The notes: generated from the sequence alone by a model not told the origin. Counted from the first letter of the stretch, positions 4,040-34,237 are shown. The stretch: 60,786 nucleotides of DNA from an uncultured Candidatus Saccharibacteria bacterium (GCA_964399075.1 CAYNPK010000004.1:1-60786), one strand, 5' to 3'. Program-made: numbers and translations.

Positions 4040-5704
4040 CTAATAGTCCATCCCCATACCACCGGGCATTCCCCCACCCATACCACTGGGCATTGGCTTG
4101 TCTTCTTTAGGATCGTCAACAATAGCCACTTCCGTGGTGAGGAGAATAGCGGCGGCGGAGGCGGCGCGCTCAATCCCCGTCCTAGCCACCTTAACCGGAT
4201 CAATAATGCCAGCCGTAAACATATCAGCTACAATTTTATCAGCATTAGCGTCATAGCCCTCATTATTTTTGCCATTTCTAATCCGATCAACAATTACTTC
4301 GCCATCGTCCTTGCCGGCATTAATGGCAATCTGACGCAAGGGAGATTCTAGAGCTTTAAGCAAAATTCTAACACCAACTTGAAACTCATCGGCAATATCA
4401 GCTGATGGCGGTTTAAGAGTTTTACCGGACACAATGGCGCTCGCTCTCACCAGAGCTGTTCCGCCACCGGTAACAATACCTTCTTCAATCGCCGCCTTGG
4501 TAGCTTCCACAGCGTCTTCTATTTTTAATTTTTTGTATTTCATATCCGCCTCGGTAGCGGCGCCAACTTTAATTACCGCCACCCCACCGGAGAGTTTACC
4601 TAAACGTTCCTTTAATTTATCCTTGTCATATTGAGAATCTGACCGCTCAATTTGAGCTCTAATCTGGGTAATCCGCGTGTCAATGTCAGACTTTTTGCCA
4701 CTGCCACCAATAATCGTGGTGTTATCTTTAGTCGCCACAATGCGTCGCGCTCGTCCAAGCATTTTTATTTCAGCATTTTCTAATTTCAAACCAACCTCTT
4801 CAGAGACAACTTGCCCGCCAGTCAAAATAGCAATATCTTCTAACATTTCTTTGCGCTTATCACCATAGCCCGGCGCCTTGATTGCCAAAGTGTTGAAGGT
4901 GCCTCGAATTTTATTAACCACCAAGGTGGCTAGAGCTTCGCCGTCGATATCTTCCGCAATGATAACCAAATCCTTCTGACCGCGATTGGCTAATTTCTCC
5001 AACAAAGGCAAAACTTCTTTTACTGTTGAGATCTTCTTGTCGGTTAATAAGATAAAAGGATCGCGGTAAGTCGCCTCCATCCGCTCGGCATCAGTAATCA
5101 TGTAAGGCGACACGTAACCCTTATCAAACTGCATCCCTTCTACCAATTCTGACTCAACACCAAATGATTGGGATTCTTCCACGGTCACAACGCCGTCTTT
5201 GCCAACTTTATCAATCGCTTCGGCAATAATTTCGCCAAATTCAGCGGATTCGGCTGAAATTGTGGCCACTTGTTTAATCTCTTGTTTTTGTTTAATTGGC
5301 TTAGCTAGAGACTTAAGCGCTACCACTGCCTCGGCAGCAGCAGCCTCAATACCCAACTTAACCCCCATGGCGTTAACGCCAAGAGTGGTTTTCTTGAAGC
5401 CTTCATTAATCAACGCTTGAGTAAGAATTACTGCCGTGGTCGTGCCGTCACCGGCAATTTCATTAGTTTTGGAAGCGACTTCTTTAACAATTTCCGAGCC
5501 CATATTTTCAATCTTATCCTTCAGAGAAATTTCTTTAGCAATAGAAACACCGTCGTTAGTAATAGTTGGCGAACCGTAGCCCTTATCCAAAATAACATTG
5601 CGTCCTTTGGGACCAATGGTCACTCGCACGGCGTTAGCGGCGGCGTCAACGCCCCGCTTTAGCGCCTGCCTAGCCGTGTCACCGAAAATAATTTGTTTAG
5701 ACAT
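4040..5704 (-). CDS. groEL: Chaperonin GroEL
   Basis: [28 protein letters not shown]-rich tail. Confidence 0.99.
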
Positions 5705-14205: not shown

Positions 14206-14259
14206 ACTTGCCTATTTTATCAGAAATTATCAGCTTACCGCTATTTTAGAATAAAAAGA

Positions 14260-14303
14260 GAGCCCCGTATCTCTCTGTGGTTAAACAGAAAAATACGAGG
14301 CTC
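14260..14303. terminator. Imperfect hairpin downstream of the 14.3-kb orphan gene
   Basis: gagccccgtat...atacgaggctc (one mismatch) with inner tctgt/acaga pairing. Confidence 0.45.
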
Positions 14304-14316
14304 AAGAGAGACAAAA

Positions 14317-14925
14317 CTACGCTACACGCACAGCCGCAGGGTTGACCTCACCCCACCCGGTATCGAGCCAACTATAGCCACAGCCCCACCTACCGCCACC
14401 CCAGCAAAGGCAACGAACAAAGAGACTGCCATCCCGGCCACGGTAAATGGTTCCCCAGAAGAAAACGGCTTTGCTCTTCCACTCCTCGGGGATGAGCCAG
14501 GGGTGCTTCAAGAGAAAGTCGAGCAGGTTGGTACTCAAGACTCTCTGGTTCTTGAGTGCCAGACGCAGGTTGTGGCCCCTGATGACCTTACCATTCTGCT
14601 GTCCCTTGTCGAGGTAGAGAGCAATCTTGGCCGGATCCCACTTCAGGACACCGCCCTTCTGGTGTTCTTCTACTCTCCAGCCCTCGGGGATGAAGGGGTC
14701 AGCATCGAGGTCGATGAGGTGGGTCCAAGTAGCGAGATACTCTTGGCCGAGGGATGTCAAAGTCTTAACGAAAGACTCCTTCCCCGCCTCGCAGAGCCAG
14801 CCAATGAAGGCCAGATCCACGCCCAGGCTCGCGAGAGTGTCACGCGCGATCGTGAACAGGTTGACCAACACCGACACGAATTGCCCCACCGCCTTCCAAT
14901 CCAACGCCTTTTTCATAGCACACAT
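14317..14925 (-). CDS. Hypothetical protein with DGR variable-region-like (CLec-type) C-terminus
   Basis: Ends WGTIYRGRDGSLFVRCLCWGGGRWGCGYSWLDTGWGEVNPAAV, the same W/G/V register as the VRs at 27.8-31.5 kb. The start may be ATG 14916. Confidence 0.7.
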   Translation of the reverse strand: MCAMKKALDWKAVGQFVSVLVNLFTIARDTLASLGVDLAFIGWLCEAGKESFVKTLTSLGQEYLATWTHLIDLDADPFIPEGWRVEEHQKGGVLKWDPAKIALYLDKGQQNGKVIRGHNLRLALKNQRVLSTNLLDFLLKHPWLIPEEWKSKAVFFWGTIYRGRDGSLFVRCLCWGGGRWGCGYSWLDTGWGEVNPAAVRVA

Positions 14926-20836: not shown

Positions 20837-23548
20837 TTATACCGGGGATCCCCAAGCAAACGCCCTCTTAATCAAGGGCGTTTGCTTTAGTCTACTAATT
20901 AACTTCCTAATCTCTTCAGTCACGACAATCATCAGAGCAACTCCAACAATAATAGACCAGTCGTTTAGATCAAGCGGAACGGTACGGAAGACGCTTTGCA
21001 TCGGCGGCCAATAAACAACCAGCAATTGCAAAGAGGCAGCAATAATACTAGAAATAATTAACCACCGATTAGACCACCACTGACGATTGAAAATGGACCG
21101 AGATTCCGATCGACAATTCCAGGCGTTAAACCATTGGAAAACTGCCAGAATTGTTAGAGCAACGGTTTGAGCCCTCAACACATCAACGGTATTATACAAA
21201 CTAAACAAAGTGAGAGCGCCAATGGTCATAATTGATCCCATCAAGACCATCCGACCAAACATTAACTTATCCACTAACCACCCTTGTGTCTGTTGCCATT
21301 GTCTATCAAGCACTTGACGACTCTTTGGCTCAGCCGCTAAAGCTAAAACCAAGAAACCATCGGTTACCAAATTTAACCAGATTATCTGACTAGCGGTTAA
21401 AGGTATCGGATAACCCAAAGCAATAGCGCCACCAATAGTTAAGACTTCACCCAAACCGGTGGAAAAAAGGTAGAGAACAACTTTTTTAATCGTTCGATAA
21501 ATATTTCGTCCCTCTTCAATCGCATCAACAATACTACCCAAATTATCATCTAATAAAATAATATCGGAAGCTTCTTTAGCCACTTCAGTACCAATCTTCC
21601 CCATCGCCACACCCAAGTCAGCAGCGGCTAGAGACAAAGCATCGTTAACCCCATCACCAGTCATAGCAATAATTTCCCGACGAGACTTATAAGCTTCAAT
21701 AATTTTTAATTTATGTTCCGGAGTTACTCTAGCGAAAATAGTAACCTTATCCAATCTGGCAGCTAATTCTGGTATATCCATGTTCATTAATTCCACACCA
21801 GTAATAGCCTCGTCCCCCTCATGATAAATACCAGCCTGAACTCCAATAGCCTTAGCGGTAATCAAGTGATCGCCAGTAATCATCACCACCCGCACTCCAG
21901 CCTGATGTGATTTAGCCACGGCTTCAGCAACTTCAGCCCTAATTACATCACTCATACCGATAAAACCAACCAGGCACAAGGAACCGGGCTTATTGGTTTT
22001 CAAAACTTTATGAGCCTCGTGTTCAACTGCTAGGGCTAAAACTCGATCGCCAGCGGCTAACATTGACTCTAGAGTCTCCCGCAATCGTGACCTAGTGTTA
22101 TGATCAAGCGACAAGTGACGACCACTAGACCAATAGGTATGACACATGGCCAAAATAACCTCTGGAGCTCCAGCAACAGACAGAATAACTCGACCGTGAT
22201 TGTCCTCATTAACCATAGCGTGATATTGAGTCGTTGAACTAAATGAGAGCTCGAGACGGAGCGGATTATCTTGCAGAAGCTGATCACGCTCGTAAGCTAA
22301 CTTCTGACCAAAAACTAAGAGAGCCGCATCGGTGGGATCGCCGAATTGTCGTTGCCACTCCTTCTCATTTGGATCATAAGCAATATTAGCGTTAGCCAAC
22401 AGGGTAGCAATTTTCCCAGCCAACAATAGGTCTGGATGATCAGGATAATTAATTGCCCTGCCTTCTAAAGTAATATCGCCCTCTGGCGCGTAACCACTGC
22501 CACTAACTTTATATAATTGACCACCAACATATAGACGATTAACCATCATTTGATTCTTGGTAATAGTGCCGGTTTTATCAACCGCAATAACCTTAGCCTG
22601 ACCAAGTGCCTCAACTGCCTGCAAACGTTTAACGAGAGCATTGTGCTTGCTCATTCGCCAAACTCCGGTGGCTAAAATCACCGTAATCACCACTGGCAAA
22701 CCCTCAGGAATTAAAGAAACCGATACCGCGACGACAATAATAAACATTTCGGCCAAGTCAATCCCCCGCCATAACCCTAAGGTTAAAATAATCACCCCAA
22801 AAATAGCAACTAGAATCATCACCAGCCTAGACAATTGACGAATATTCGCCTTAAGTGGCATCTCGGCATCTATTTGCTCAAGAGCTTTAGAAATTTGACC
22901 AATCATTGTTTGTTGACCAGTCGAAACAACCAGAGCCTTGGCTGATCCAGCAAGAACATAAGTGCCACGGAAGATCATGTTCTTTTGTTCCGCTGGTAAC
23001 AGCTCTTTTGGTTCTAAGTCATCAATAATTTTAGTAACTGGTTCAGACTCGCCGGTCAAAGCCGCCTCGTCAATCTGGAGAGAGGTAACTTCAATCAAGC
23101 GAGCGTCAGCTGGCACTTTGTCGCCATCGTTTAATAAGAAAATGTCACCCGGGACCAACTCACGGTCGTCGAGAACGTACTCTCGACCATCGCGAATTAC
23201 CCGAGCACGAGTGGAAACAAAACGACGTAGAGCCTGCAAGGTTTGCTGGGCCCGACCCTCTTGGATTGAGCCGATAGTGGCATTAAGTAATAAAACAAAA
23301 ACAATCACCGCGCCATCAACCCACTCGCCAAGAGCCAGAACGATTATCGCGGCAATCAATAAAACATAAATCAGAGAACTCTGAAATTGCTTGACGAAGA
23401 TTTTGAAAATTGAATCGACTGGCGTCTCCGGCAAAGAATTCGGACCATAAACTTTAAGTCTGTTTGCAACCTCAATTTGAGTCAGGCCAACTTCTGAAGA
23501 TTGGAGATCTTGATAGACTTCAGTTAACTTTTTTTGATACCACAACAT
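20837..23548 (-). CDS. P-type cation (Ca2+-like, type II) ATPase
   Basis: LTGES, IPEGLP, DKTGT phosphorylation site, MITGD, TGDGVND. Confidence 0.95.
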   Translation of the reverse strand: MLWYQKKLTEVYQDLQSSEVGLTQIEVANRLKVYGPNSLPETPVDSIFKIFVKQFQSSLIYVLLIAAIIVLALGEWVDGAVIVFVLLLNATIGSIQEGRAQQTLQALRRFVSTRARVIRDGREYVLDDRELVPGDIFLLNDGDKVPADARLIEVTSLQIDEAALTGESEPVTKIIDDLEPKELLPAEQKNMIFRGTYVLAGSAKALVVSTGQQTMIGQISKALEQIDAEMPLKANIRQLSRLVMILVAIFGVIILTLGLWRGIDLAEMFIIVVAVSVSLIPEGLPVVITVILATGVWRMSKHNALVKRLQAVEALGQAKVIAVDKTGTITKNQMMVNRLYVGGQLYKVSGSGYAPEGDITLEGRAINYPDHPDLLLAGKIATLLANANIAYDPNEKEWQRQFGDPTDAALLVFGQKLAYERDQLLQDNPLRLELSFSSTTQYHAMVNEDNHGRVILSVAGAPEVILAMCHTYWSSGRHLSLDHNTRSRLRETLESMLAAGDRVLALAVEHEAHKVLKTNKPGSLCLVGFIGMSDVIRAEVAEAVAKSHQAGVRVVMITGDHLITAKAIGVQAGIYHEGDEAITGVELMNMDIPELAARLDKVTIFARVTPEHKLKIIEAYKSRREIIAMTGDGVNDALSLAAADLGVAMGKIGTEVAKEASDIILLDDNLGSIVDAIEEGRNIYRTIKKVVLYLFSTGLGEVLTIGGAIALGYPIPLTASQIIWLNLVTDGFLVLALAAEPKSRQVLDRQWQQTQGWLVDKLMFGRMVLMGSIMTIGALTLFSLYNTVDVLRAQTVALTILAVFQWFNAWNCRSESRSIFNRQWWSNRWLIISSIIAASLQLLVVYWPPMQSVFRTVPLDLNDWSIIVGVALMIVVTEEIRKLISRLKQTPLIKRAFAWGSPV

Positions 23549-25199
23549 TCTTTTTTACATTTTTCATAGCAGCTTTAATAAAAGATAAGAATAGCGGATG
23601 AGGTTTAAGCGGAGCCGATTTAAATTCCGGATGAAATTGACAACCTAAGAAAAAGGGGTGAATCGACTTAGGCAACTCAACAATTTCCATTAAACGACCA
23701 TCCGGCGAAGTCCCCGAGAACACCAAACCGGCAGAGGTAAGCAACTGAATAAACCTTGGATTAACTTCGTAACGATGGCGGTGACGCTCGTTAATTTGCA
23801 ACTGACGATAAGCTTGATAAGCCAGAGTGCCACGCTTAATAAGGGCTGGTTGAGATCCCAAGCGCATCGTGCCACCAAAGTTCTGATTACTAACATTTTC
23901 CGTTTGCTCTAACATCAGATCAATGACCGGAGACTTTGTTTCCAGATCAATTTCTGTAGTATGTGCATCCGGCAAACCAGCAACGTGACGAGCAAATTCA
24001 ACAACCGCTAATTGCATGCCATAGCATAAACCCAAATAGGGAATGCCTCTCTCGCGAACATACTTAATTACATTGATCTTACCGGCCACACCACGCTCGC
24101 CGAAACCGCCAGGGACTAGAATTCCGTGATACTGATCGAGATTCTTAAGTTGCTTCAGACCAGCGGAAGACTCGTAGTCACCAGCATCAAGCCAATCGAG
24201 TTCTAGACGACGATTTAGGGCACCAGTGGCGTGCTTAAGCGATTCAATAATCGAAATATAAACATCCGACAAGACGAAATCGCCAGTCTTAAAATATTTA
24301 CCAACGATACCAATCCGCACCGGCTTGGTGGCTCGCCTCATCTTGAGCGCCATTGCTTGCCACTCCTTCATGTCAGTTTGATTAGTCTTGAGTTGGAGTA
24401 AACGCAAAACGGTCGAGCTCAAATTATCAGCCTCAAAATTTAGCGGAATATCATAAATATTATCCACATCGGGAGCAGAAATAATGTGCTCAACAGGCAC
24501 ATTGCTGGAGAGAGCAATTTTCTCTTTGCGCTTCTTGTCAATCAGTCTATCACTGCGGGCAATAATAATATCAGGATGCACACCGTAAGAATTAAGGGAG
24601 CGAACGGCGTATTGAGTTGGCTTGGTCTTCATCTCCCCAATCTTAGACGGCACCGGCAGATAGCTAACCAGAACAAACAGCACATCAGTCGGATGTCTTA
24701 ATTTTAGAATGCGAGCTGCTTCAATAAAAATGGCGTTCTGATATTCGCCAACGGTTCCGCCGATTTCAATCAAAGTAACATCCGCTTTTGTTAGATCAGT
24801 AGAGGCCTTGATGCGTCGCAAGATCTCGGCAGAGATGTAAGGCACTGGATCGACGCACTTACCACCATAACCCAAGGCGCGCTCCTTATCGATTACATAC
24901 TTATAAACCATCCCACTGGTCATATAATTCTCAGGCGGAATACTCTGACCAAGAAAACGCTCATAGTTGCCCATGTCTTGATCGCACTCCAAACCGGAAT
25001 CTAAGACGAAAACTTCGCCATGCTCAATTGGATTCATCGTCCCAGCGTCGACATTGAGATAAGGATCGATCTTCATCGGGTTAACAACCAAGCCACGCGC
25101 CTGGAGAATCTTGGCGATAGAGGCGGTAGTGATGCCCTTGCCAACGCCAGACATTACACCACCGATAATAAAAATGTATTTATGTTTGCTTGCTGACAT
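23520..25199 (-). CDS. pyrG: CTP synthase
   Basis: GGVMSGVGKG, KIDPYLNVD, KTKPTQ, PGGFGERG, LGLCYGMQ, QFHPEF. Confidence 0.98.
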   Translation of the reverse strand: MSASKHKYIFIIGGVMSGVGKGITTASIAKILQARGLVVNPMKIDPYLNVDAGTMNPIEHGEVFVLDSGLECDQDMGNYERFLGQSIPPENYMTSGMVYKYVIDKERALGYGGKCVDPVPYISAEILRRIKASTDLTKADVTLIEIGGTVGEYQNAIFIEAARILKLRHPTDVLFVLVSYLPVPSKIGEMKTKPTQYAVRSLNSYGVHPDIIIARSDRLIDKKRKEKIALSSNVPVEHIISAPDVDNIYDIPLNFEADNLSSTVLRLLQLKTNQTDMKEWQAMALKMRRATKPVRIGIVGKYFKTGDFVLSDVYISIIESLKHATGALNRRLELDWLDAGDYESSAGLKQLKNLDQYHGILVPGGFGERGVAGKINVIKYVRERGIPYLGLCYGMQLAVVEFARHVAGLPDAHTTEIDLETKSPVIDLMLEQTENVSNQNFGGTMRLGSQPALIKRGTLAYQAYRQLQINERHRHRYEVNPRFIQLLTSAGLVFSGTSPDGRLMEIVELPKSIHPFFLGCQFHPEFKSAPLKPHPLFLSFIKAAMKNVKKNVVVSKKVN

Positions 25200-26116
25200 C
25201 AGACTCGGAGATGCCGACGAATGGCCAGGAAACTAGCGACCATGCCCAAGACCACACCCGACACCAACAAGATCAAGAAAATAGAAGCAAAGTGTTCAAG
25301 GAAATAAGAAGTTAGATTAATGCCACCATAGACGCCGGCGGTTTTAGTTCGAATCCAAATCGTCGCTGGATAGAGCAAGACAACAGCAATAATCGAAGCA
25401 ATAAACCCGGAGATAACTCCCTCAATAATGAAGGGTCCTCGGACATAATTATTACCAGCGCCAACTAACTTCATTAGAGAAATCTCTTCGCGAGAAATAT
25501 AAATGGCCAGAGAAATAGTGTTAAAGGTAACAATAATAGAAGTGAAAATGAGAACCAGAGCAATTGCCCAACCGACAGTTTTAGAAGTATTAATAATTCT
25601 AATCAATCTATCGATCACGTCTTTCTTAAAACTAATTTGGTCGATAATTATTTCGCCACTAGAAGAACGGGAGCTATCACTCTCGAGAAACTTAGCTACA
25701 TTCTCATAACGCCCAGGGTCAGTTGAGATAATATTGAGACGAGCGCCAAAGGGGTTACCAATCTCATCTAGTGAACGAATGACTAAACTATTATTCTCGT
25801 TACGCTGACGGAAGTCGGCCAACTCCTCTTCGCGCGAGCTGTAGTGAACTGACTTAATTTCAACCAAAGACTCCAGAGTTTTCTGTAACTCCAAGACCTC
25901 GGTCTCCGGCACTTCGGGATAGAAAGAAACACTAATATCGACCTTCTCTTGAATCGCCAGCAGTGAAGAATTAAAGAAAGCGCCAGATAAAATGAGAGCA
26001 CCAATGACAAACAAAGTTACGGTAATCGTCACAATAGAAGCTAGAGAAACAATAGGATTACGCCAGAAGCTAAGCAACCCCCAACGAAAAATTCTTTTAA
26101 GATTAATTAGCAACAT
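25199..26116 (-). CDS. ftsX: Cell division permease FtsX
   Basis: FNTISLAIY..REEI..MKLVGA...VRGPFIIEG; follows ftsE. Confidence 0.92.
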   Translation of the reverse strand: MLLINLKRIFRWGLLSFWRNPIVSLASIVTITVTLFVIGALILSGAFFNSSLLAIQEKVDISVSFYPEVPETEVLELQKTLESLVEIKSVHYSSREEELADFRQRNENNSLVIRSLDEIGNPFGARLNIISTDPGRYENVAKFLESDSSRSSSGEIIIDQISFKKDVIDRLIRIINTSKTVGWAIALVLIFTSIIVTFNTISLAIYISREEISLMKLVGAGNNYVRGPFIIEGVISGFIASIIAVVLLYPATIWIRTKTAGVYGGINLTSYFLEHFASIFLILLVSGVVLGMVASFLAIRRHLRV

Positions 26117-26121
26117 AAAAA

Positions 26122-26802
26122 TTACAAAATATATTTACCAACTTTATTATCACGAGTAATACGACCGTTCTCCAAAGTGATCACTCTCTTGCCCAAAGAA
26201 TCAATGACTGACTTATTGTGAGTGGTTAAAATCACCGTGGTGCCGACTTCGTTTATTTTACGCAAAATTTCAATAATTTCAAAAGTATTAATCGGATCAA
26301 GATTACCAGTCGGCTCATCAGCTAATAATAAATCTGGCTGATTAACAATCGCTCTAGCAATCGCCACTCGCTGACGCTCGCCACCGGATAATTCACTGGG
26401 GAAACTCCACATCTTGTGGCTTAGGCCAACCAGATCCAAGACATGAGGGACATCGGCTTCAATCTCCTCATCATTACGACCGGAGGCCTCCATCACGAAG
26501 GCGACATTCTCAAAAATTGTTTTAGCCGGCAAGAGGCGAAAATCTTGAAAGATGCTCCCAATCCGACGACGTAAACGAGGCACCTGATTCTTCGCCAAAG
26601 AATGAATATCTGTAGAGTTAAAAAAGACTTTACCGGAACTTGGCCTCTCCTCGGCCAGAATCATTTTGAGAAGTGTACTCTTGCCAGCGCCGGAATGGCC
26701 GACAATAGAAATAAATTGCTGAGGCTCAACAGTGAAAGTGATGTCATCAAGAGCGACAGACTGATCGCGATAGACTTTAGAAACTTTATCAAAAAAAATC
26801 AT
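26122..26802 (-). CDS. ftsE: Cell division ATP-binding protein FtsE
   Basis: GHSGAGKS, IFQDFRLL, LSGGERQR, ADEPTGNLD. Confidence 0.93.
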   Translation of the reverse strand: MIFFDKVSKVYRDQSVALDDITFTVEPQQFISIVGHSGAGKSTLLKMILAEERPSSGKVFFNSTDIHSLAKNQVPRLRRRIGSIFQDFRLLPAKTIFENVAFVMEASGRNDEEIEADVPHVLDLVGLSHKMWSFPSELSGGERQRVAIARAIVNQPDLLLADEPTGNLDPINTFEIIEILRKINEVGTTVILTTHNKSVIDSLGKRVITLENGRITRDNKVGKYIL

Positions 26803-26811
26803 TTGGTTTAA

Positions 26812-27684
26812 TTAAATTTTAGCAGTTAGAAAAATGTCAATTTGTCCAGCCATCACCGCTTCCACATCATGAGTTTCTACACCGGTGCGATGATCCTTAA
26901 CCATTTTGTAAGGATGGAAAACGTAAGAACGAATCTGACTACCCCACTCAATCTCTGTCGTCTTACTGATGTACATGCCCTGCTCTTTAGCCAATCTCTC
27001 TTCCTCCTGTCGTTTGTACAACTTGCCCTTCAGAATCACTAGGGCTTGATCACGATTACGCTCTTGAGTGCGTTCATTGGAGGAATGAGCGGATAAATTG
27101 GTTGGCAGGTGGACAATCCGCACCGCTGTTTCCCGCTTGTTGACATTCTGCCCCCCGGGACCGCTAGAGCGAGAGAACTCAATCTTCAAATCAGCGGGGT
27201 CAATAGTGACCTCTTCACCCTTCTTAAACTCCGGAATGACTTCGACTAAAGCAAAAGAAGTGTGACGCAACTTCTTGGCGTTGAAGGGAGAGATCCGCAC
27301 GAGCCGGTGGACTCCCGACTCACCCTTTAATATACCATAAGCCTTAGATCCTTGCACCAAAAAAGTGATATTGCGATAACCACCATGATCATTCTGATTC
27401 TGGTGAAGCAAAACAATAGTCAAACCGGCCTTCTCGGCCCAATGCCAATACATTTCGCACAAGAGACGCGAGAAATCTTCCGCATCATCCCCACCGGCGC
27501 CAGCAAAAATAGTAATAATCGCATTACCGGAATCATATTTCCCCTCACCGGCCAATTGCCGTTTCAACTCATTAAATTCGGCCACCTTCTCCTGCGCCTC
27601 GCGTTTATCAGACCAGAAGCCGGGCAAGCCCATTTCTTGTTCCAGTTGTTTAATTTTCTGCGTGAGTTCTTGCTTATTCACCAT
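26812..27684 (-). CDS. prfB: Peptide chain release factor 2 (compact)
   Basis: GESGVHRLVRISPF (SPF), SSGPGGQNVNK (GGQ), WGSQIRSYV. Confidence 0.92.
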   Translation of the reverse strand: MVNKQELTQKIKQLEQEMGLPGFWSDKREAQEKVAEFNELKRQLAGEGKYDSGNAIITIFAGAGGDDAEDFSRLLCEMYWHWAEKAGLTIVLLHQNQNDHGGYRNITFLVQGSKAYGILKGESGVHRLVRISPFNAKKLRHTSFALVEVIPEFKKGEEVTIDPADLKIEFSRSSGPGGQNVNKRETAVRIVHLPTNLSAHSSNERTQERNRDQALVILKGKLYKRQEEERLAKEQGMYISKTTEIEWGSQIRSYVFHPYKMVKDHRTGVETHDVEAVMAGQIDIFLTAKI

Positions 27685-27741
27685 AACAATCTAATTCAGG
27701 ATTTTCCATAACCCTAATTTTATCAAAAATTCTTAATCTCA

Positions 27742-27770
27742 ACCACCCCAGCTTAGGAAGCTGGGGTGGT
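27742..27770. other. Perfect 13-bp hairpin 3' of VR (candidate DGR cis element)
   Basis: accaccccagctt-agg-aagctggggtggt, 9 bp past the stop codon, no U-tract in the coding direction. Confidence 0.6.
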
Positions 27771-27779
27771 AATCAAGGT

Positions 27780-28601
27780 TCAAATCTCAAGAAGAACGAC
27801 CCGATCATCGGCACCCCAAGCACTGCCGAGCCAGCCAGCGCTACGGTGCCAAGCCGACCCATTCCAGTAAGCGTAAGGCACACACCAGCTGCCATAGGAG
27901 TCACGGAGGAGAGAACCAGGGAAGTAGAACCAAGAGCTTTTGTCTTTTAAGATGTCTGGAGTTTTGTCGGGGTTCTTCTCTAGCCAATGCCAGTATTCTA
28001 CTCCAGGCAAGTGGTGGGTGTTGGCGTAGGTGTCAGTGATATATTGGAAGACTTCTGATCGTGGTTTGCCATTGTAAGCAGAGAGATCGGGAATGAAGAT
28101 TTTAGCTTGTTCGAAGTCCAGAGCTTGAGTCTCGGGGTTTAAGGTGTATTCACCGAATTTGGTTTTGTCTATGTCTGTTTTCAACGTCTCGTAGTCTTGA
28201 TCTTCGGGTTTGATGAGAGTGGGAGTAAAGCCAGTTTCTGGGGTACCGAAGATCTTGAGGTCGTCTTGGTATTGCTCATTGAGAGCTTCAAGGTCTAGCT
28301 CTGGTTCTTGAGGTAGCTCCTCACCAGAGTCTAGAGTAGCTTGGAGACTGTCGAGACGGTGGTCGGCTCTCGAGAGTTCTCCTTGCAGGCGGAGTTTCCT
28401 CGCTTCACCACTGCCTGGTTCTTCTCCTTCTTGGTCTTCGAATTCACCTTGGGCCAGTTTCTCATCATAGATATCCAATCTAGCAAGAGTTTGTTGACGG
28501 AGCTTGGCGATGCGTTGAGTGAGAGCTTGACGGAGAGCCTCTTGAGTTTGAGGTTCTCTCTCGTTTGCTTGAGCCAGCTGGTGGAGGGATTCTGGGATCA
28601 T
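27780..28601 (-). CDS. DGR target-like protein, copy 1 (acidic coiled-coil N-terminus, CLec-type variable C-terminus)
   Basis: C-terminal ~130 aa paralogous to the AAA+ protein C-terminus; ends GSLLRDSYGSWCVPYAYWNGSAWHRSAGWLGSAWGADDRVVLLEI. Confidence 0.85.
   Translation of the reverse strand: MIPESLHQLAQANEREPQTQEALRQALTQRIAKLRQQTLARLDIYDEKLAQGEFEDQEGEEPGSGEARKLRLQGELSRADHRLDSLQATLDSGEELPQEPELDLEALNEQYQDDLKIFGTPETGFTPTLIKPEDQDYETLKTDIDKTKFGEYTLNPETQALDFEQAKIFIPDLSAYNGKPRSEVFQYITDTYANTHHLPGVEYWHWLEKNPDKTPDILKDKSSWFYFPGSLLRDSYGSWCVPYAYWNGSAWHRSAGWLGSAWGADDRVVLLEI
27787..27917 (-). repeat. DGR variable region (VR), allele A
   Basis: 131 bp; 13 differences from 31390-31520, all at positions 1-2 of NNY codons. 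Confidence 0.88.
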
Positions 28602-28610
28602 ATTATAAAT

Positions 28611-30461
28611 CTATAAATCTTGTAAATGTTCTTTTAATAATTCTCCCAACGCCAAGGGCAATCTGGAGACATCTTCGACGACCAAAGCATTAGGAGCATA
28701 AGTTGATAAGACTGGCGAACCACCACTAGTCAGACCAACCCCGAGAGCAACCACGCCCTTGTCTCGCAAACTCTTCAAAACCGCCTGGACTCTAGTCGGA
28801 TCATCACTGCCACCGTCGGTGAAGATAATCACAATTTTCTTCAGCTCGCCGATTTTTATCTTTATCTTCGTCTGGTCATCTAGATTGGCGTCAATAGCTT
28901 CTAGAGAATTGAAATCGGTGGTCGTTCCGGGCAAATGCCCCAAACTCTTCAACACCTCCACCCTCTCCGCCTCGCCAAGCTCGGCGGACATTTTCTTCAT
29001 CGGCGTCCTATCCTCGCCGGCACCAAAGCCGTAAATCTCCGATCTAACCTCCAGTGGCTTATCAATATTTATTTTTTCCGCCTCGCATAATTCAGCAAAC
29101 TCCTTAAGCACCTCCATCATCAGAACGGCTGACTTCTTCTGCTCCTCCGCCTTCTTGCCCCCGTCCGCCGCCATAGAGCCAGACCTATCGCACACCAGAG
29201 TAATATCTACCTCGCCAAATTTCTCACCCCGCTTCTCCTTAATTTCCGTATCTTCCCAAACTTTGGGCTGGAGATTGCCGGCCTTCACCTCCGCAACCAA
29301 TTGGGCCGGATCTACCAAGTCATCGCCCTCCTCCACGGGATACTTCGGCGCCAACATTTGCTTGAGTCTCTTAGAAATAATCCGCGAGAACAGATCTCTT
29401 AACTCTTTAAGAATGTTCACGTCCGTTTCTGGATTAACCAGCTTGTCCAACTTTTCCACCATCTTCCGATAATCTTGCAAATCCTGCTTCTCCACGCCAA
29501 TCTTGCTAGCATAATCCTGATCAGCTTGGTCAGCATTATTTTCTCCAGTCTGCGCCTCTTGCCATTCTTTGAAAGCTTTCTCTATTTCCTCCACCGGCAT
29601 CGCTTCGGGAAATTTCTTTTCCGCCTCGGCATATTCCTTCGCGAAAATTTTATTAGGGTCAGTTTCTTCGTCCTCCACTTTTTTTCCACCAGCTTCGCCT
29701 TTTTCACCCTCACCTTTTTCTGACTCTTGCTTTTCCCGCTCTTCTTCCTTTTGCTTCCGCCTATCTTCAAGATCCTTCTCCAAGAGCGCCTGCACCTTGG
29801 GCCAGATATATTTATCCTGCAACTTCAGACGCATAGACATAGTCGTTTCCGGATTAGTCATAATGTCTAGCAAACCCTCCACTTGGGCCACCTCATCCAG
29901 CGCTTGTCTTACTTCCGGCGCTACCTGGCAAGTCTCGCTCGGCACTCGCGCCTCGCGCAACAGCGCCTGGCTAAATTGAATGTGTTTGGGCTCGGCGCTA
30001 AAATCAGTCCCGGGAAATAAATTTTCTTGGTAAATCTTCGTCTCCAACTCACCCATGCCCGGATTAGTTTTAGCCACCACGGTTCGATTTTCTCTAACAT
30101 CTGCGACACAATTATCCATGAGAGAAAAAGCTTTAGAAGTCTTGATCCGTTTAAGAAATTTCTCAAACACTTTCTCCCCACCATCTTCCGACAACAGACG
30201 CGACTTTTCCATAAAGTGCTCCAACTCGTGCAAAATAGCGAAAACCGTCTTCTCTTCCGACAAGCCAAACTCGGCATAAAACATGGAATTGACATAGATA
30301 GTGTTCTTTTCTAAATCAAAAGCAAAAGTATTTAACCCCGCCGGTGCTGGCTCAACTTTAATTTCGCCTCGAGCATAGTGCTCAAAGAAGTCTCGATGTT
30401 TCTCTACTAGAGCCACCGCTTCAGCATGTTCCCTTGTCTCAATACCGCTTGGTTGTTCCAT
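28611..30461 (-). CDS. vWA-domain protein with N-terminal HExxH metallopeptidase-like motif
   Basis: ILHELEH motif; acidic linker; MIDAS DRSGSM...T...FTDG. Confidence 0.85.
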   Translation of the reverse strand: MEQPSGIETREHAEAVALVEKHRDFFEHYARGEIKVEPAPAGLNTFAFDLEKNTIYVNSMFYAEFGLSEEKTVFAILHELEHFMEKSRLLSEDGGEKVFEKFLKRIKTSKAFSLMDNCVADVRENRTVVAKTNPGMGELETKIYQENLFPGTDFSAEPKHIQFSQALLREARVPSETCQVAPEVRQALDEVAQVEGLLDIMTNPETTMSMRLKLQDKYIWPKVQALLEKDLEDRRKQKEEEREKQESEKGEGEKGEAGGKKVEDEETDPNKIFAKEYAEAEKKFPEAMPVEEIEKAFKEWQEAQTGENNADQADQDYASKIGVEKQDLQDYRKMVEKLDKLVNPETDVNILKELRDLFSRIISKRLKQMLAPKYPVEEGDDLVDPAQLVAEVKAGNLQPKVWEDTEIKEKRGEKFGEVDITLVCDRSGSMAADGGKKAEEQKKSAVLMMEVLKEFAELCEAEKINIDKPLEVRSEIYGFGAGEDRTPMKKMSAELGEAERVEVLKSLGHLPGTTTDFNSLEAIDANLDDQTKIKIKIGELKKIVIIFTDGGSDDPTRVQAVLKSLRDKGVVALGVGLTSGGSPVLSTYAPNALVVEDVSRLPLALGELLKEHLQDL

Positions 30462-30561
30462 GTGACTATTTTACTCTTTTTATTCTGTTTAACAAAAATC
30501 GTCGCAAAACACAGCAAACCCAAACCACCCCAGCTTAGGAAGCTGGGGTGGTAATCAAGGT

Positions 30562-31383
30562 TCAAATCTCAAGAAGAACGACCCGATCATCGGCACCCCA
30601 AGCACTGCCGAGCCAGCCAGCGCTACGGTGCCAAGCCGACCCATTCCAGTAAGCGTAAGGCACACACCAGCTGCCATAGGAGTCACGGAGGAGAGAACCA
30701 GGGAAGTAGAACCAAGAGCTTTTGTCTTTTAAGATGTCTGGAGTTTTGTCGGGGTTCTTCTCTAGCCAATGCCAGTATTCTACTCCAGGCAAGTGGTGGG
30801 TGTTGGCGTAGGTGTCAGTGATATATTGGAAGACTTCTGATCGTGGTTTGCCATTGTAAGCAGAGAGATCGGGAATGAAGATTTTAGCTTGTTCGAAGTC
30901 CAGAGCTTGAGTCTCGGGGTTTAAGGTGTATTCACCGAATTTGGTTTTGTCTATGTCTGTTTTCAACGTCTCGTAGTCTTGATCTTCGGGTTTGATGAGA
31001 GTGGGAGTAAAGCCAGTTTCTGGGGTACCGAAGATCTTGAGGTCGTCTTGGTATTGCTCATTGAGAGCTTCAAGGTCTAGCTCTGGTTCTTGAGGTAGCT
31101 CCTCACCAGAGTCTAGAGTAGCTTGGAGACTGTCGAGACGGTGGTCGGCTCTCGAGAGTTCTCCTTGCAGGCGGAGTTTCCTCGCTTCACCACTGCCTGG
31201 TTCTTCTCCTTCTTGGTCTTCGAATTCACCTTGGGCCAGTTTCTCATCATAGATATCCAATCTAGCAAGAGTTTGTTGACGGAGCTTGGCGATGCGTTGA
31301 GTGAGAGCTTGACGGAGAGCCTCTTGAGTTTGAGGTTCTCTCTCGTTTGCTTGAGCCAGCTGGTGGAGGGATTCTGGGATCAT
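30562..31383 (-). CDS. DGR target-like protein, copy 2
   Basis: Translation identical to 27780-28601; start overlaps the AAA+ stop (ATGA). Confidence 0.85.
   Translation of the reverse strand: MIPESLHQLAQANEREPQTQEALRQALTQRIAKLRQQTLARLDIYDEKLAQGEFEDQEGEEPGSGEARKLRLQGELSRADHRLDSLQATLDSGEELPQEPELDLEALNEQYQDDLKIFGTPETGFTPTLIKPEDQDYETLKTDIDKTKFGEYTLNPETQALDFEQAKIFIPDLSAYNGKPRSEVFQYITDTYANTHHLPGVEYWHWLEKNPDKTPDILKDKSSWFYFPGSLLRDSYGSWCVPYAYWNGSAWHRSAGWLGSAWGADDRVVLLEI
30569..30699 (-). repeat. DGR variable region, allele A (duplicate)
   Basis: Same sequence as 27787-27917. Confidence 0.85.
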
Positions 31384-33707
31384 ATTTTTTCAAGAAGAAC
31401 GACCCGACCATGGGCATCCCAAGCATTGCCGAGCCAGCGAGCGCTACGGTCCCAAGCCGACCCACCCCAGCCAGCGTAAGGCACATCCCAGCTGCCATAG
31501 GAGCCACGGAGGAGAGAACCGAACTGGTAATAATAATTTCCATCTTTAAACTGGGTGGGGACTTTATCCGGATTTTCTAGTATAAACTTCCAATATTCAA
31601 TCCCGGGCAACTTATATCTGTCAGAATAAGTATCAATCAGATGTTTAGCCACTTCTGCTAGAGGTTCGCCTTCAAGAGCCGAGAGGTCCGGTATGTAAAT
31701 CTTGTCTCTAAGCGCCTCCCAATCTAAGTTCTGGGTATCAGGATTTATGGTAAACTCTCCAAATTTAGAAATATCAACATCAGCCTGACGAGTTGGATAG
31801 TCTATAGTGTCTGGATTGATAATTTCCGTCTTAATAGTGACATTGTTAATTTTATCAGCCTCTACTCCCCATTTTCCATAAGTTTCTTTAAGAAAGGGGG
31901 TAAATTCAATGGTGGGGTCCTCAACAACCCCTAATTCTCCTCTCAATGACCGACTGAAGTCATCAACACCGCCTACTTGTTCATTACCCAGAAGCGCTTC
32001 GGCTTGGTCTCTTAATAAGTTAGCTCTCCGACCGAAGGGATCAAGCATCGCCACCTCCTTAAGCGAGAGGTGCTTGGTGTCACCAGATTTGGCTTGGAGC
32101 TCTTCTACGGCCTCGGCGCCTCTCAACCTCTTGATCGTGTTGAATTGGAAAATGTCCTCCGGTAAATCTAAATCTTTTTTGGCATCTAAAGTCAGCAAAA
32201 AGCCTTTCGAGGCCAGAATCTTAGCGACTAAGATTCTATCTTCTTTTGGATATTCCTTAAAAGTCAAAGCAGTCTTAAATCTTTCATCTAGAAATTCGGC
32301 GAAACTTCTCTCTTTTTTACCAGTTTGTTTTTCGATAAGCCAGGAAGACAATATCGCCTCCACCGAACCTTGGGTCATCACAAACTTTTTCAAAGAATAC
32401 ATCTTGCCGGAAGCATCCATTGCCCCCGACCGTCTTGCCACCTCTTTATCAGTTTCATTAGTATAACTTTCTTGAATTTCTGACATCACTCGGCAAAGAT
32501 TCGGAAGTGTCGTGTTGAGATCGTGAAAAGACATATCAAGAGAGCCGTCGCGATTCAGAAGTCTAGCCAGTATGATGTCATAGGCCTCATCAGGAGGGGT
32601 ATATTTAACTTCCAAATTGTTTTGCTCGAATTCGCGAGCGATCTCGGGTGGTAAATCTTGTCGTTCGGGATTCTTTTCCGACTTCAAGTTAGCAGTGAAG
32701 ATCATTTGGAAACCGGGGGCAATTTCCACTATACCGTTACCAACAATGTTTATCTTATCGCCCACCCTGGCGTTAAAAACACCCTTGATGAAAACCATTT
32801 GCTCTTTCGGCAAAGCCGTAAATTCATCGAAAATAACCGTCTTACCCTCTGCCATGGCCTTAGCCAAAGGTCCATAAATTTCCACCGTTTCTATCGCTCC
32901 ACTCTTAGTCGGCTTGATACCGGTCTTACCCCAAACATTTGATTCTTTAGTCTGCGGATTACAAAATACCATCTCCGGATCTTTACCAGTGAAGTGCCTG
33001 GCGGCATAACGCGCCAAAGAAGTTTTTCCCGTACCGGTTGGACCATGCAGAAACATCGGTTTGCCGGTCAACATTCTATCGCCGATTGCTTCTAAGTCTC
33101 TTTCCACACTTGGCGTAATGCAAATGTGACCACTCTGCGCCAAATTTTCTTTATATTCCACAATTTCAGCTTGACGTAGCACGACCATGTCCACTTTTGA
33201 TAATTCTTTTTCACTTTTTTCGATTTCTTCATTTATTTTCTTTAAACGCCCTTCGTGTCTTTTTTTCTTAGCTTGTGATGTGTCCGAACTCAAAATCTCT
33301 AGCATTATTTGCACTCTATAATCTTTTAACGAAGCGATGTTTGCCAATAAATCTTTCGGCTCTTTAATTTCTGGCGATTCCTGTAAGATAGAATCGTAAT
33401 CAATACCACTTAATTCGTCTAAGATTTTCTGTTCATATTCACTTTTTTGTTTATTTAAAAAAGTTTTTGCCCCACTTAACCCACCATAATCAGCAACTTT
33501 AAAAGCATCCGCTTGCTTATTTTTTTCTTCCAAAGAATCAATCTCATCGGCGACAAGAATTTCTCCCGAAGATTTTTTCAACTTCCCCTCCTTGATCTTA
33601 TTTTTAAGTCCAGAAATAACTTCTCTGAACTCCCTTCTTTCTTCAGAAACCTCATGAAAATTGGTCGGATTTTCTGGTTCCGGACTTACTTCAGGTATTT
33701 TTTCCAT
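31380..33707 (-). CDS. MoxR/dynein-related AAA+ ATPase with C-terminal DGR-variable (CLec-type) domain
   Basis: Walker A GPTGTGKT, Walker B VIFDE, FQMIFTAN; C-terminal VR. Likely start ATG 33707, 6 nt after TGTTATTAT. Confidence 0.9.
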   Translation of the reverse strand: MEKIPEVSPEPENPTNFHEVSEERREFREVISGLKNKIKEGKLKKSSGEILVADEIDSLEEKNKQADAFKVADYGGLSGAKTFLNKQKSEYEQKILDELSGIDYDSILQESPEIKEPKDLLANIASLKDYRVQIMLEILSSDTSQAKKKRHEGRLKKINEEIEKSEKELSKVDMVVLRQAEIVEYKENLAQSGHICITPSVERDLEAIGDRMLTGKPMFLHGPTGTGKTSLARYAARHFTGKDPEMVFCNPQTKESNVWGKTGIKPTKSGAIETVEIYGPLAKAMAEGKTVIFDEFTALPKEQMVFIKGVFNARVGDKINIVGNGIVEIAPGFQMIFTANLKSEKNPERQDLPPEIAREFEQNNLEVKYTPPDEAYDIILARLLNRDGSLDMSFHDLNTTLPNLCRVMSEIQESYTNETDKEVARRSGAMDASGKMYSLKKFVMTQGSVEAILSSWLIEKQTGKKERSFAEFLDERFKTALTFKEYPKEDRILVAKILASKGFLLTLDAKKDLDLPEDIFQFNTIKRLRGAEAVEELQAKSGDTKHLSLKEVAMLDPFGRRANLLRDQAEALLGNEQVGGVDDFSRSLRGELGVVEDPTIEFTPFLKETYGKWGVEADKINNVTIKTEIINPDTIDYPTRQADVDISKFGEFTINPDTQNLDWEALRDKIYIPDLSALEGEPLAEVAKHLIDTYSDRYKLPGIEYWKFILENPDKVPTQFKDGNYYYQFGSLLRGSYGSWDVPYAGWGGSAWDRSARWLGNAWDAHGRVVLLEKI
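31390..31520 (-). repeat. DGR variable region, allele B
   Basis: 118/131 identical to allele A, while the flanking paralogous sequence is far more diverged. Confidence 0.88.
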
Positions 33708-33763
33708 AACCACATAATAACACTATCAAAATGTTTTGAAAAACCAGGAGATTACCCGAGATT

Positions 33764-33839
33764 TGGAGCCACCTCGCGGGGTTGAACCGCGGACCCCCAC
33801 TTTACGAAAGTGGTGCTCTACCAACTGAGCTAAGGTGGC
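33764..33839 (-). tRNA. tRNA-Thr(CGT)
   Basis: CCACT-TTCGTAA-AGTGG anticodon arm; cloverleaf with CCA. Confidence 0.95.
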
Positions 33840-33849
33840 CTGACACCTA

Positions 33850-33925
33850 TGGAGCCGATGCGCAGAATTGAACTGCGGACCTTTCCCTTACCATGGGAGT
33901 GCTCTACCAACTGAGCTACATCGGC
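33850..33925 (-). tRNA. tRNA-Thr(GGT)
   Basis: CTCCC-ATGGTAA-GGGAA anticodon arm; cloverleaf with CCA. Confidence 0.95.
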
Positions 33926-33946
33926 TTTGTCTCCTTCACTAACAAG

Positions 33947-34020
33947 CGCGACCGACCGGACTTGAACCGGCAACCTCTCGCGTGACAGGCGAGTGCTCTA
34001 ACCAGTTGAGCTACGATCGC
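33947..34020 (-). tRNA. tRNA-Asp(GTC)
   Basis: CTCGC-CTGTCAC-GCGAG anticodon arm; CCA not encoded. Confidence 0.95.
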
Positions 34021-34044
34021 AATATTAATCTAATTAAAGACCGG

Positions 34045-34118
34045 TGCCGGCGGGTGGAATTGAACCACCGACCTTGGGCTTATGAGTCCCACGCTCTAAC
34101 CAACTGAGCTACACCGGC
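34045..34118 (-). tRNA. tRNA with CAT anticodon (elongator Met or Ile2)
   Basis: TGGGA-CTCATAA-GCCCA arm, paired 1:72; Met vs Ile2 cannot be resolved by eye. Confidence 0.9.
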
Positions 34119-34163
34119 GCCAAATTATTGTAGCAAAAAGCTCTAAGAAGATAAAGACTAAAC

Positions 34164-34237
34164 TGGTTGCGGGGCCGGGATTTGCACCCGGGTCTCGAGG
34201 TTATGAGCCTCGCGAATTACTGTTACTCTACCCCGCG
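34164..34237 (-). tRNA. Initiator-type tRNA-Met(CAT), atypical D and T loops
   Basis: C1:A72 mismatch, A11:U24, CTCATAA loop, CCA. Confidence 0.88.

Follow-up and report, generated by a model that had tools for sequence, protein, structure and literature searches.

A probable orphan array of DGR target genes in a MoxR-vWA module of a CPR bacterium

Gene content and assembly of the module

The window is the whole 60.8-kb stretch of DNA (60,786 nucleotides) that we analysed, and the module described here lies on its minus strand. The ATPase gene (31380..33713, minus strand) encodes a MoxR-like AAA_5 ATPase, assigned with Pfam, that carries a C-terminal variable domain of ~148 aa. The protein is 777 aa long when read from a GTG and 775 aa when read from the ATG at 33707, and the 775-aa form is the one recorded in NCBI and Logan. 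It matched the Pfam AAA_5 model with an E value of 2e-13 (51 bits vs a cut-off of 22), and a weak match to the bpMoxR model was also obtained (18 bits vs a cut-off of 27). The C-terminal 147 aa of the ATPase are 56% identical to the C-terminal domain of a small protein of 273 aa that is encoded twice, by copy 1 at 27780..28601 and by copy 2 at 30562..31383 (both minus strand). The two copies are identical, and each consists of an N-terminal helical/coiled-coil part, with helices at 20-50 and 64-92, followed by a variable C-domain. The ATG of copy 2 overlaps the stop codon of the ATPase gene (ATGA), forming a 4-nt stop/start overlap. The remaining gene (28611..30461, minus strand) encodes a VWA protein of 616 aa, assigned on the basis of Pfam and of synteny with the VWA gene in the module of relatives. 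This protein possesses an N-terminal HExxH motif, an acidic/lysine-rich linker and a VWA domain (Pfam VWA, E 1.2e-7; 32.6 bits vs a cut-off of 23.8) with the MIDAS-type motif DRSGS. Both members of a MoxR-type AAA+/VWA pair, an AAA_5-class ATPase and an adjacent VWA protein with a MIDAS motif, were therefore found in the module, and all of its target ORFs are intact. Pfam and PADLOC revealed no VMAP, peptidase, TIR or other effector domain in the module proteins.

Each variable domain ends in a 131-nt variable repeat (VR) on the minus strand. The VR of the ATPase gene (31390..31520) ends 8 nt short of the stop codon, and those of the small genes are located at 27787..27917 (copy 1) and 30569..30699 (copy 2). 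In addition, an exact 864-bp repeat (copy 1, 27741..28604; copy 2, 30523..31386) spans the entire small gene. Because both small-gene VRs lie inside this repeat, they represent one VR sequence present twice and do not constitute independent evidence.

The identity of the small-gene VRs, or even the whole arrangement, might be an assembly artefact: hypervariable paralogous repeats assemble poorly, one VR path could be threaded through both copies, and the small protein is absent from the Logan assembly records. However, three Logan contigs from separate runs (SRR11845627/8/9) are exact matches to the window and terminate 30 nt (k-1) within each of the four repeat boundaries, which is the pattern of a true two-copy repeat, and an independent Logan assembly shows the same junction between the ATPase gene and the small gene. 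An artefact thus seems unlikely to us, and the comparison of the ATPase VR with the small-gene VR is unaffected either way. The ATPase VR is unbranched in Logan contig L043, as is the VR of a second target family (described below) in Logan contigs. Together with the identity of the small-gene VRs, this gives no sign of ongoing diversification, and no variant members were present in the protein clusters of the ATPase, VWA and second-family proteins.

Substitution pattern of the VRs and the templates of relatives

The two small-gene VRs are 100% identical over 131 nt, and they share 118/131 nt with the ATPase VR. When read in frame on the minus strand, the 13 differences fall in ten codons (GAC/GGC, TGT/GAT, TAC/GGC, AAT/GGT, CAC/GAC, GGC/CGC, AGT/AAT, GGT/GAT, GAT/CAT and GAT/GGT), and all of them affect the first or second position of an NNY codon. 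Both positions have changed in 3/10 of these codons, there are no synonymous changes, and third positions differ between the ATPase and small-gene VRs at 0/43 codons; the probability that 13 random differences would all miss third positions is 0.004. In the paralogous domain just upstream of the VR, nucleotide identity is 56.6% and 68/99 third positions differ. A third-position A was found in none of the 43 codons of either VR, vs 28-31% upstream (P about 1e-7), and one copy retains A at 8/13 variable sites in a sequence that is otherwise A-poor. Direct comparison thus bore out the initial annotation, which had reported three 131-nt copies sharing 118/131 nt between gene types, 13 differences restricted to positions 1-2 of ten NNY codons, a lack of third-position A in the 43 codons and an upstream paralogous domain of only loose similarity. 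A VR at the extreme C-terminus of an ORF, with variation at positions 1-2 and no third-position A, is what characterizes a DGR target.

Homologues of the module all come from Paceibacterota, Taylorbacteria, Kaiserbacteria and similar groups, and our census of the family covered 30 loci from GTDB species genomes together with loci fetched earlier. In these Patescibacteria, the module comprises an ATPase with a variable tail, a VWA protein and small proteins with variable tails, and the template (TR), Avd and RT lie right behind the ATPase gene; in nearly all relatives this core directly adjoins the ATPase VR. The order in L001, for example, is ATPase VR, TR (4825-4960, N-rich), Avd (minus strand), RT, small VR gene, VWA gene and second small VR gene. 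Avd and RT are present in L004, L007, L016, L018-L020, L027, L031, L035, L037, L040 and the P0005-bearing contig, and a TR was found in these loci wherever DNA was available. In the relatives, one TR with AAT/AAC codons at the corresponding positions, located beside Avd and RT, is the source for the ATPase tail and the small-protein tails alike. The homologues in L001, L003 and L004 are targets of a TR-RT pair with A-specific differences; TR adenines account for 16/16 and 16/16 of the TR-VR differences in L004 and for 23/24 and 19/19 in L003. In L001, in which the RT is broken, the VRs depart from the TR at 4-7 non-A sites, part of which lie at the repeat ends. The core of the relatives also occurs in several states of decay: the RT has internal deletions in L001 and L026, L033 keeps only a remnant of the RT C-terminus, and L006 lacks the core altogether; the target genes remain intact throughout this series.

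The 13 in-register TRs of the relatives gave 29 consensus adenine sites, which include every one of the 13 window-variable sites (hypergeometric P = 2.9e-10). The mean TR adenine frequency is 0.85 at the window-variable sites vs 0.17 elsewhere, and the stretch of homology between the window VRs has the same limits as the TRs of the relatives. The initial annotation had proposed that a template be located and its adenines confirmed; the TRs of the relatives, serving as a proxy, place adenine at 13/13 sites, but no TR was found in the window itself. As a point against the DGR reading, the two window VRs agree in a non-A base at 10 of the other 16 consensus adenine sites, and 4 further adenines are unmutated in both. 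This means either that the TR of the window differs from the family consensus or that selection acts. In alignments of homologous proteins (25 and 125 sequences), the scaffold is invariant and alternating positions are hypervariable. Across ~125 homologues, only the same alternating positions vary.

Absence of a core from the window and the origin of the VRs

A repeat search of the window returned the three VRs and a 59% match at 14349-14443, which belongs to a different target family. This unrelated second orphan DGR-type target occupies 14317-14925 and has no core in the window; its homologue in L024 adjoins a TR and an Avd gene. No TR was found in the window as a fourth repeat copy, either by blastn with a word size of 7 or by a 3-mismatch pattern search. 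No RT was detected in the window by a YxDD/SQ motif scan or by tblastn with two family RTs (best E 0.16), nor was Avd by tblastn with two family Avd proteins; the RT and Avd queries were taken from L003, L004 and L001, and nothing appeared at E < 0.1. A 45-nt VR/TR pattern with N at the variable sites had zero matches in public genome, metagenome and viral contig collections, and a search with the inferred TR peptide yielded no candidate, a result that carries no information, TRs being rarely called as genes. RT, a matching TR and Avd are thus all absent from the window, and the canonical core site after the ATPase gene is taken up by the 4-nt overlap with the small gene. The TR, Avd and RT are missing both from this site and from the 60.8-kb window. 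We consider it very probable that the VRs were written by DGR mutagenic retrohoming and that the locus is now an orphan target array, and we infer the existence, now or in the past, of a TR carrying adenine at each of the 13 sites. The earlier claim that two genes are being diversified from one template is strongly supported by the homologous TR-Avd-RT loci in its core, an adenine-mutagenesis fingerprint written into both genes from one TR, but not in its present tense and its locality.

Under this explanation, the VRs would be the C-terminal ends of a receptor-like domain of ~148 aa carried by the ATPase and by two small coiled-coil proteins, with the VWA protein as a further member of the module. 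Reverse transcription of a TR transcript with about ten AAY codons would insert random bases opposite the adenines, and the mutagenized cDNA would replace the 131-nt VR. One TR would have served the ATPase gene and the small genes alike, which would account for VRs that are identical save at the former adenine sites in a domain that otherwise stands at 57%. The ATPase may transduce ligand binding, by analogy with MoxR-vWA sensor systems.

A similar pattern might arise without any DGR if gene conversion homogenised the 131-nt tract and positive selection subsequently acted at ten ligand-contact codons. Conversion of whole domains does occur in this module, as seen in the C-domains that are 100% identical between genes in L004, L006 and L027 and in the exact 864-bp repeat of the window. 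However, the shared tract ends exactly at the TR boundaries of the relatives, three of the ten codons differ at two positions each with zero synonymous changes, the 13 sites all match TR adenines of the relatives (P = 3e-10), and at 8/13 sites one copy still has A in an A-poor sequence. We therefore regard conversion followed by selection as highly improbable. Given writing by a DGR, a remote core that still rewrites the VRs and a recent loss of the core that left them frozen appear about equally probable. A working TR-Avd-RT core located elsewhere, >27 kb off or on another contig, and acting on the three VRs in trans has nearly an even chance of being correct. The 118 non-variable VR nucleotides are free of differences in spite of a flanking domain with no more than 57% identity, while the VRs of L001, with its broken RT, already show the non-A-site differences noted above; the ATGA overlap also resembles an established operon junction and not a fresh deletion scar, and non-adjacent or remote targets are known for 45/372 DGRs (PMC5758913). 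Nevertheless, in nearly all relatives the core directly adjoins the ATPase VR, CPR DGRs are reported to favour a single adjacent target (PMC5758913), and VR heterogeneity is absent from the assemblies. In the one relative tested for remote targeting, a stand-alone domain gene on a separate contig (L022) did not prove a clean target of the L019 TR of the same MAG, with 14 A-site vs 15 non-A-site differences.

Recent loss of the core from the canonical site, with the VRs frozen at the last retrohoming and the proteins left with fixed specificities, is also a serious possibility, though short of an even one. The decay series at the same site in relatives (L001, L026, L033 and L006) shows such losses, the second target of the window likewise stands without a core, unlike its L024 homologue, and the paralogue VRs are identical and assemble unbranched. 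On the other hand, the VRs show no ordinary drift and the target ORFs are all intact, so that the core must have disappeared very recently unless the VRs are kept clean by gene conversion and selection. The series of cores at one site (intact, with an internally deleted RT, as an RT remnant or absent) bears on the fate of DGR targets once the mutator is gone, namely whether they persist as proteins of fixed specificity.

The variable domain and comparison with known systems

The C-domain alone, modelled by AlphaFold with 125 sequences, reached a pLDDT of 97, whereas in the full-length small protein modelled with 25 sequences its pLDDT was below 50. Against PDB, Foldseek gave no match at E < 0.1, and the recurring weak matches were C-type lectin-like (TM 0.31-0.42). 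Against the BFVD viral library there was likewise no confident match, with one weak C-type lectin protein at TMq 0.37. Thirteen C-domains had no match in Pfam, including the FGE-sulfatase models, a PDB profile search returned only coiled-coil noise, and PADLOC gave nothing relevant. The domain therefore combines a confident predicted structure with the lack of a close structural neighbour. The variable residues alternate along predicted beta-strands in an x-S-x-G-x-W-x pattern, and this alternation suggests that one exposed face of the modelled sheet is probably the ligand-binding surface.

A class of CPR DGR targets in which an AAA ATPase is fused to a C-terminal CLec-type variable domain is already published (Paul et al. 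2017, as reported in PMC10907252), and the DGRs of CPR/Patescibacteria belong to RT clade 2 of Roux et al. 2021 (PMC8144416). The window resembles these systems in its taxonomic group and in its AAA_5 ATPase with a C-terminal VR, and its relatives do so in the arrangement of the core, with Avd on the minus and RT on the plus strand, and in their A-specific TR-VR differences. It differs from them in the lack of TR, Avd and RT and in having three targets, two of them exact duplicates, whereas CPR DGRs are said typically to have just one, adjacent target (PMC5758913). DGR-associated MoxR-vWA (VMAP ternary) conflict systems have been described in cyanobacteria and gammaproteobacteria (Kaur et al. 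2020, PMC7159879; Dore et al. 2024, PMC10907252), with the variable domain proposed as sensor and the ATPase as transducer. As in those systems, genes for a MoxR-like AAA ATPase and a vWA protein occur alongside ligand-binding domains diversified by a DGR. However, the variable FGS/CLec domain of the ternary systems is located on the vWA protein, whereas the window carries its variable domain on the ATPase and on free small proteins; the third component is VMAP in the former and a small coiled-coil variable protein in the latter, and the RT clade of the CPR relatives differs from the RT of the ternary systems. The locus thus extends the link of MoxR-vWA modules with DGR-diversified binding domains by a CPR variant. 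In Treponema denticola, TvpA and its paralogues are remote DGR targets (Wu et al. 2018, PMC5758913), and there, as would be the case here, the VR-bearing genes are distant from the RT and one TR serves several targets; the TvpA system has a known TR that matches its targets, whereas for the window remote targeting is one of two possibilities.

It is possible, but rather doubtful, that the module is a CPR MoxR-vWA sensor system in which a DGR-written receptor domain sits on the ATPase and on two free adaptors, with a remote core keeping the array clean. If this is true, a three-gene array would be serviced in trans in a lineage described with compact single-target DGRs, and the variable domain would represent a new fold variant. 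The locus also illustrates that DGR-written genes are recognisable from the comparison of paralogues alone, with no retroelement nearby, and RT-first surveys would miss it.

The fingerprint in the window resembles that of the Bordetella phage BPP-1 DGR (Mtd, TR, bAvd, bRT), in which AAY codons at the C-terminal end of the target are mutagenized specifically at adenines. A possible further resemblance is an IMH-like end of the VR: its last ~20 nt, the final repeat base excepted, are A-free, and a GC-rich inverted repeat lies past two of the window VRs (compare PMC3240598). Unlike BPP-1, the locus is cellular and not phage, and its variable domain is not recognisably Mtd-like. The inverted repeat of small gene copy 1 is a hairpin with a 13-bp stem (27742..27770, minus strand) that begins 12 nt past the stop codon, and an identical hairpin follows copy 2 (30524..30552, minus strand). 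Its folding z-score is -7.1 and it was also returned by the terminator scan; it may serve as a terminator or as the inverted repeat of a DGR target site. An Rfam scan of the window detected only tRNAs. In contrast to BPP-1, the hairpin starts ~19 nt past the end of homology, and none follows the ATPase VR. Hairpins past the VRs vary among the relatives, and a role of the post-VR hairpin as a conserved element of DGR target recognition was rejected as a feature of the family, since it occurs inconsistently after the VRs of relatives and consistently after their TRs.

The gene module and its variable repeats

The module genes and prfB all lie on the minus strand, and in the order of transcription they encode an AAA_5 (MoxR-like) ATPase of 777 aa (31380-33713; Pfam), a 273-aa small protein (30562-31383) with an ATG start that overlaps the stop codon of the ATPase gene (ATGA), a VWA protein of 616 aa (28611-30461; Pfam), a second 273-aa small protein (27780-28601) and PrfB (26812-27684). 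In the VWA protein, the N-terminal domain contains an HExxH motif (AILHELEHF, approximately residues 75-83); the protein also has a long acidic/lysine-rich linker as well as a DRSGS motif of the MIDAS type, and it may join a metallopeptidase-like domain with a VWA domain. Directly upstream of the ATPase gene are five tRNA genes (Thr-CGT, Thr-GGT, Asp, Met and Met; 33764-34237, minus strand), and these genes are what a repeat finder had reported as short direct repeats at this place. At several loci of Patescibacteria/CPR relatives, a PemK-family toxin gene is inserted ahead of the module VWA gene (L001 7423-7815, L004 3427-3741, L008 120-515 and the contig of the homologous protein P0005), and an NYN nuclease gene is additionally found in the L004 module; neither gene is present in the module of the window.

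A 131-nt repeat (GGTTCTCTCCTCCGTNNC...CGGGTCGTTCTTCTTG) occurs three times in the window, as the variable repeat (VR) of each small gene (27787-27917 and 30569-30699, which are identical) and of the ATPase gene (31390-31520, with 13 differences from the other two). The identical VRs are not independent, because both lie inside an exact 864-bp direct repeat (27741-28604 and 30523-31386) that covers the whole small gene, the VR, a downstream hairpin and 39 nt past the stop codon. Independently assembled Logan contigs (SRR11845627/8/9) reproduce the window sequence exactly over 31357-33913, 28575-30552 and 21845-27770, and each of them ends 30 nt (k-1) inside an 864-bp repeat boundary. Thus, the two-copy repeat is real in the reads and all four of its junctions are confirmed; no record of the small protein itself was recovered from the Logan assemblies.

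Read in frame, the 13 differences resolve into the ten codon pairs listed in the initial annotation, each of them in the first or second position of an NNY codon. Its further statement that third-position A is absent also proved correct for all 43 codons of either VR, compared with 28-31% upstream (P about 1e-7), and the paralogous domain immediately upstream is indeed only loosely similar (56.6% identical), with differences at 68 of 99 third positions. Within the VR, third positions differ at 0/43, three codons are changed at two positions and no change is synonymous. An A is present in one of the two VR sequences at 8 of the 13 differing sites, and the remaining five (T/G, T/G, C/G, G/C and G/C) need a third template state.

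Template repeats in relatives and the origin of the VRs

Searches for small-protein homologs returned about 30 with a single sequence and about 137 with a C-domain profile, all of them from Patescibacteria/CPR metagenome bins (Paceibacterota, Taylorbacteria, Kaiserbacteria and others). Their alignment has an invariant scaffold, GSLxRxSxGxWxVPxAxWxGSxWxRxAxWLxxxWxxxxRVVLLE, in which x is hypervariable. In the L001 locus the repeat is present four times, at the end of the ATPase gene, at each of two small-gene ends and as a non-coding copy (4825-4960) that is rich in asparagine codons and constitutes the template repeat (TR) of a diversity-generating retroelement (DGR). This TR comes directly after the ATPase gene; next in order are bAvd, the accessory gene, on the opposite strand and then the reverse transcriptase (RT) gene. 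A tblastn census covering 30 loci from GTDB species genomes and the loci fetched earlier revealed as the rule either ATPase(VR)-TR-Avd(minus)-RT(plus)-[small]-VWA-small or VWA-ATPase(VR)-TR-Avd-RT. Where the RT is intact, TR-VR differences fall at adenines in 16/16 and 16/16 cases in L004 and in 23/24 and 19/19 cases in L003, and this specificity is slightly degraded in L001, where the RT carries an internal deletion (16/20, 19/26 and 16/22).

When 13 in-register TRs of relatives were aligned codon by codon with the window VRs over 129 sites, all 13 window-variable sites coincided with consensus TR adenines, of which there are 29 (hypergeometric P = 2.9e-10). Mean TR adenine frequency was 0.85 at window-variable sites, 0.17 elsewhere and 0.02 at third positions. 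In addition, at both the 5' and the 3' end, VR-VR identity in the window stops where TR-VR homology stops in the relatives (ending ...CTCCTCG). The adenine specificity and this alignment together indicate that variation among relatives is not spread over all codon positions, which the initial annotation had named as evidence against its reading. It had also proposed to locate the template and confirm its adenines; the window holds no TR, but by proxy the relatives' TRs have the expected consensus adenine at 13/13 sites, which speaks against the other finding that it had named as refuting, a template with bases other than adenine there. Of the 16 other family-consensus adenine sites, 10 carry a non-A base that the two window VRs share, and four further adenines remain unmutated in the two sequences. 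This implies that the TR has fewer adenines than is usual in the family or that these residues are under selection.

We consider it highly probable that mutagenic retrohoming wrote the VRs from one TR carrying AAY at each of the ten codons that differ, in which case a single template would have diversified both the ATPase and the small genes. That gene conversion and selection made the pattern with no DGR at all is very unlikely, because double-position codon changes occur with zero synonymous change, the homogenised tract shares the boundaries of the relatives' TRs and its differing sites are the adenines of those TRs. Thus, both the adenine-mutagenesis origin and the use of one template for two gene types, as first proposed, are borne out.

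Gene conversion is indicated elsewhere in the family. The ATPase and small genes of L006 are 100% identical over the full 520 nt of the C-domain, a pattern that points to gene conversion and not to DGR homogenisation. Identity of 100% over the C-domain, including the VR, was found between the ATPase and small genes of L006 (4106-4537 and 7139-7570) and L027 (5700-6146 and 10403-10849; core intact) and between two module genes of L004 (2641-3090 and 7235-7684; core intact). These three relatives suggest that recurrent gene conversion (concerted evolution) is added to DGR homogenisation. The exact small-gene duplicate of the window fits this process and says little about DGR activity.

Among 17 partial copies of the repeat, 16 of which are TRs adjoining Avd (for example L004 about 650-690, L007, L031 and L040), 16 have a strong hairpin (median -17.8 kcal/mol). 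This hairpin begins 3-25 nt beyond the homology end, overlapping the convergent Avd gene at its 3' end, and may be either a terminator or a piece of the DGR RNA spacer. Hairpins 3' of VRs are inconsistent among relatives. One small-protein homolog (P0013, locus L012, Candidatus Taylorbacteria) has its VR in a shifted frame (...AGLHLASELSCCAPRDLIFDRPPFRRRAP...), which probably reflects either a target pseudogene with a frameshift or an error of sequencing.

The missing core and possible continued rewriting

In the window, a blastn search for a TR (word size 7) matched only the three VRs, a motif scan found no RT context, and tblastn with family proteins detected neither RT nor Avd (best E 0.16, spurious). 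Because all three components are absent, the window is a set of DGR targets and not a DGR; the initial reading stands for the origin of the pattern and the shared template, the ongoing diversification that it describes is a possibility, and the template itself is absent from the window. The canonical core position is occupied instead by the 4-nt stop/start overlap, and this ATPase-small junction is not an assembly quirk, as it is the same in the Logan contigs. In relatives, a decay series with RT pseudogenes was observed at the core site: internal deletions remove the catalytic centre of the RT in L001 (5396-6295) and L026 (10144-10566), only a C-terminal RT remnant is left in L033 (10515-10688), without Avd or TR, and L006 has no core. 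The window, likewise without a core, can be placed beside L006 in this series.

There is nearly an even chance that an active core located elsewhere still rewrites the VRs. Ordinary drift is absent at the 118 scaffold nucleotides, while the VRs of L001 already differ at non-A sites; other DGRs have documented remote targets (PMC5758913), and the ATPase-small junction resembles an established operon overlap. Recent loss of the core we regard as possible at somewhat less than an even chance. In its favor, nearly all relatives have the core next to the targets, its decay at that site can be observed among them, and the window contains a second DGR-type target, unrelated to this family, that is likewise without a core. 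Moreover, the ATPase VR and the VR of this second family assemble unbranched, and in the one relative tested, a stand-alone domain gene (L022) is not a clean target of the TR of its genome.

The variable domain, known systems and a second target

An AlphaFold model of the 148-aa C-domain (125 sequences; pLDDT 97, pTM 0.89) consists of two helices followed by beta-strands 114-121, 126-132 and 141-147, which bear the VR. The i, i+2 alternation along the modeled strands suggests that the diversified residues would form one exposed sheet face. Pfam, PDB-sequence and PADLOC searches with the C-domain were negative, and Foldseek found no significant neighbor in PDB and BFVD, the sole recurring theme being a weak resemblance to C-type lectin-like domains (TM 0.31-0.42).

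An AAA ATPase with a C-terminal DGR-variable domain is the commonest type of CPR DGR target according to a passage of PMC10907252 that cites Paul et al. 2017, and CPR DGRs have an RT clade of their own (PMC8144416). The target architecture is thus already known, and the one unusual aspect of the window is its orphan state. VMAP ternary systems of cyanobacteria and proteobacteria are also MoxR-vWA modules with DGR-diversified domains (PMC7159879, PMC10907252). However, in those systems the vWA protein bears the variable domain as a fusion, and effector domains occur, whereas in the window the variable domain is carried by the ATPase and small partner proteins, and no effector was found.

The second target is a 202-aa protein (14317-14925, minus strand) that ends in a different VR-like tail (...GTIYRGRDGSLFVRCLCWGGGRWGCGYSWLDTGWGEVNPAAVRVA). 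In L024, the homologous VR (13702-13836) is accompanied by a TR of its own (14168-14284) and by an Avd-like gene (14349-14711, minus strand), while neither a TR nor an Avd for this target is present in the window; it is thus a second orphan DGR-type target, of a different family. The 202-aa protein, including its VR, is also found in a Logan assembly.
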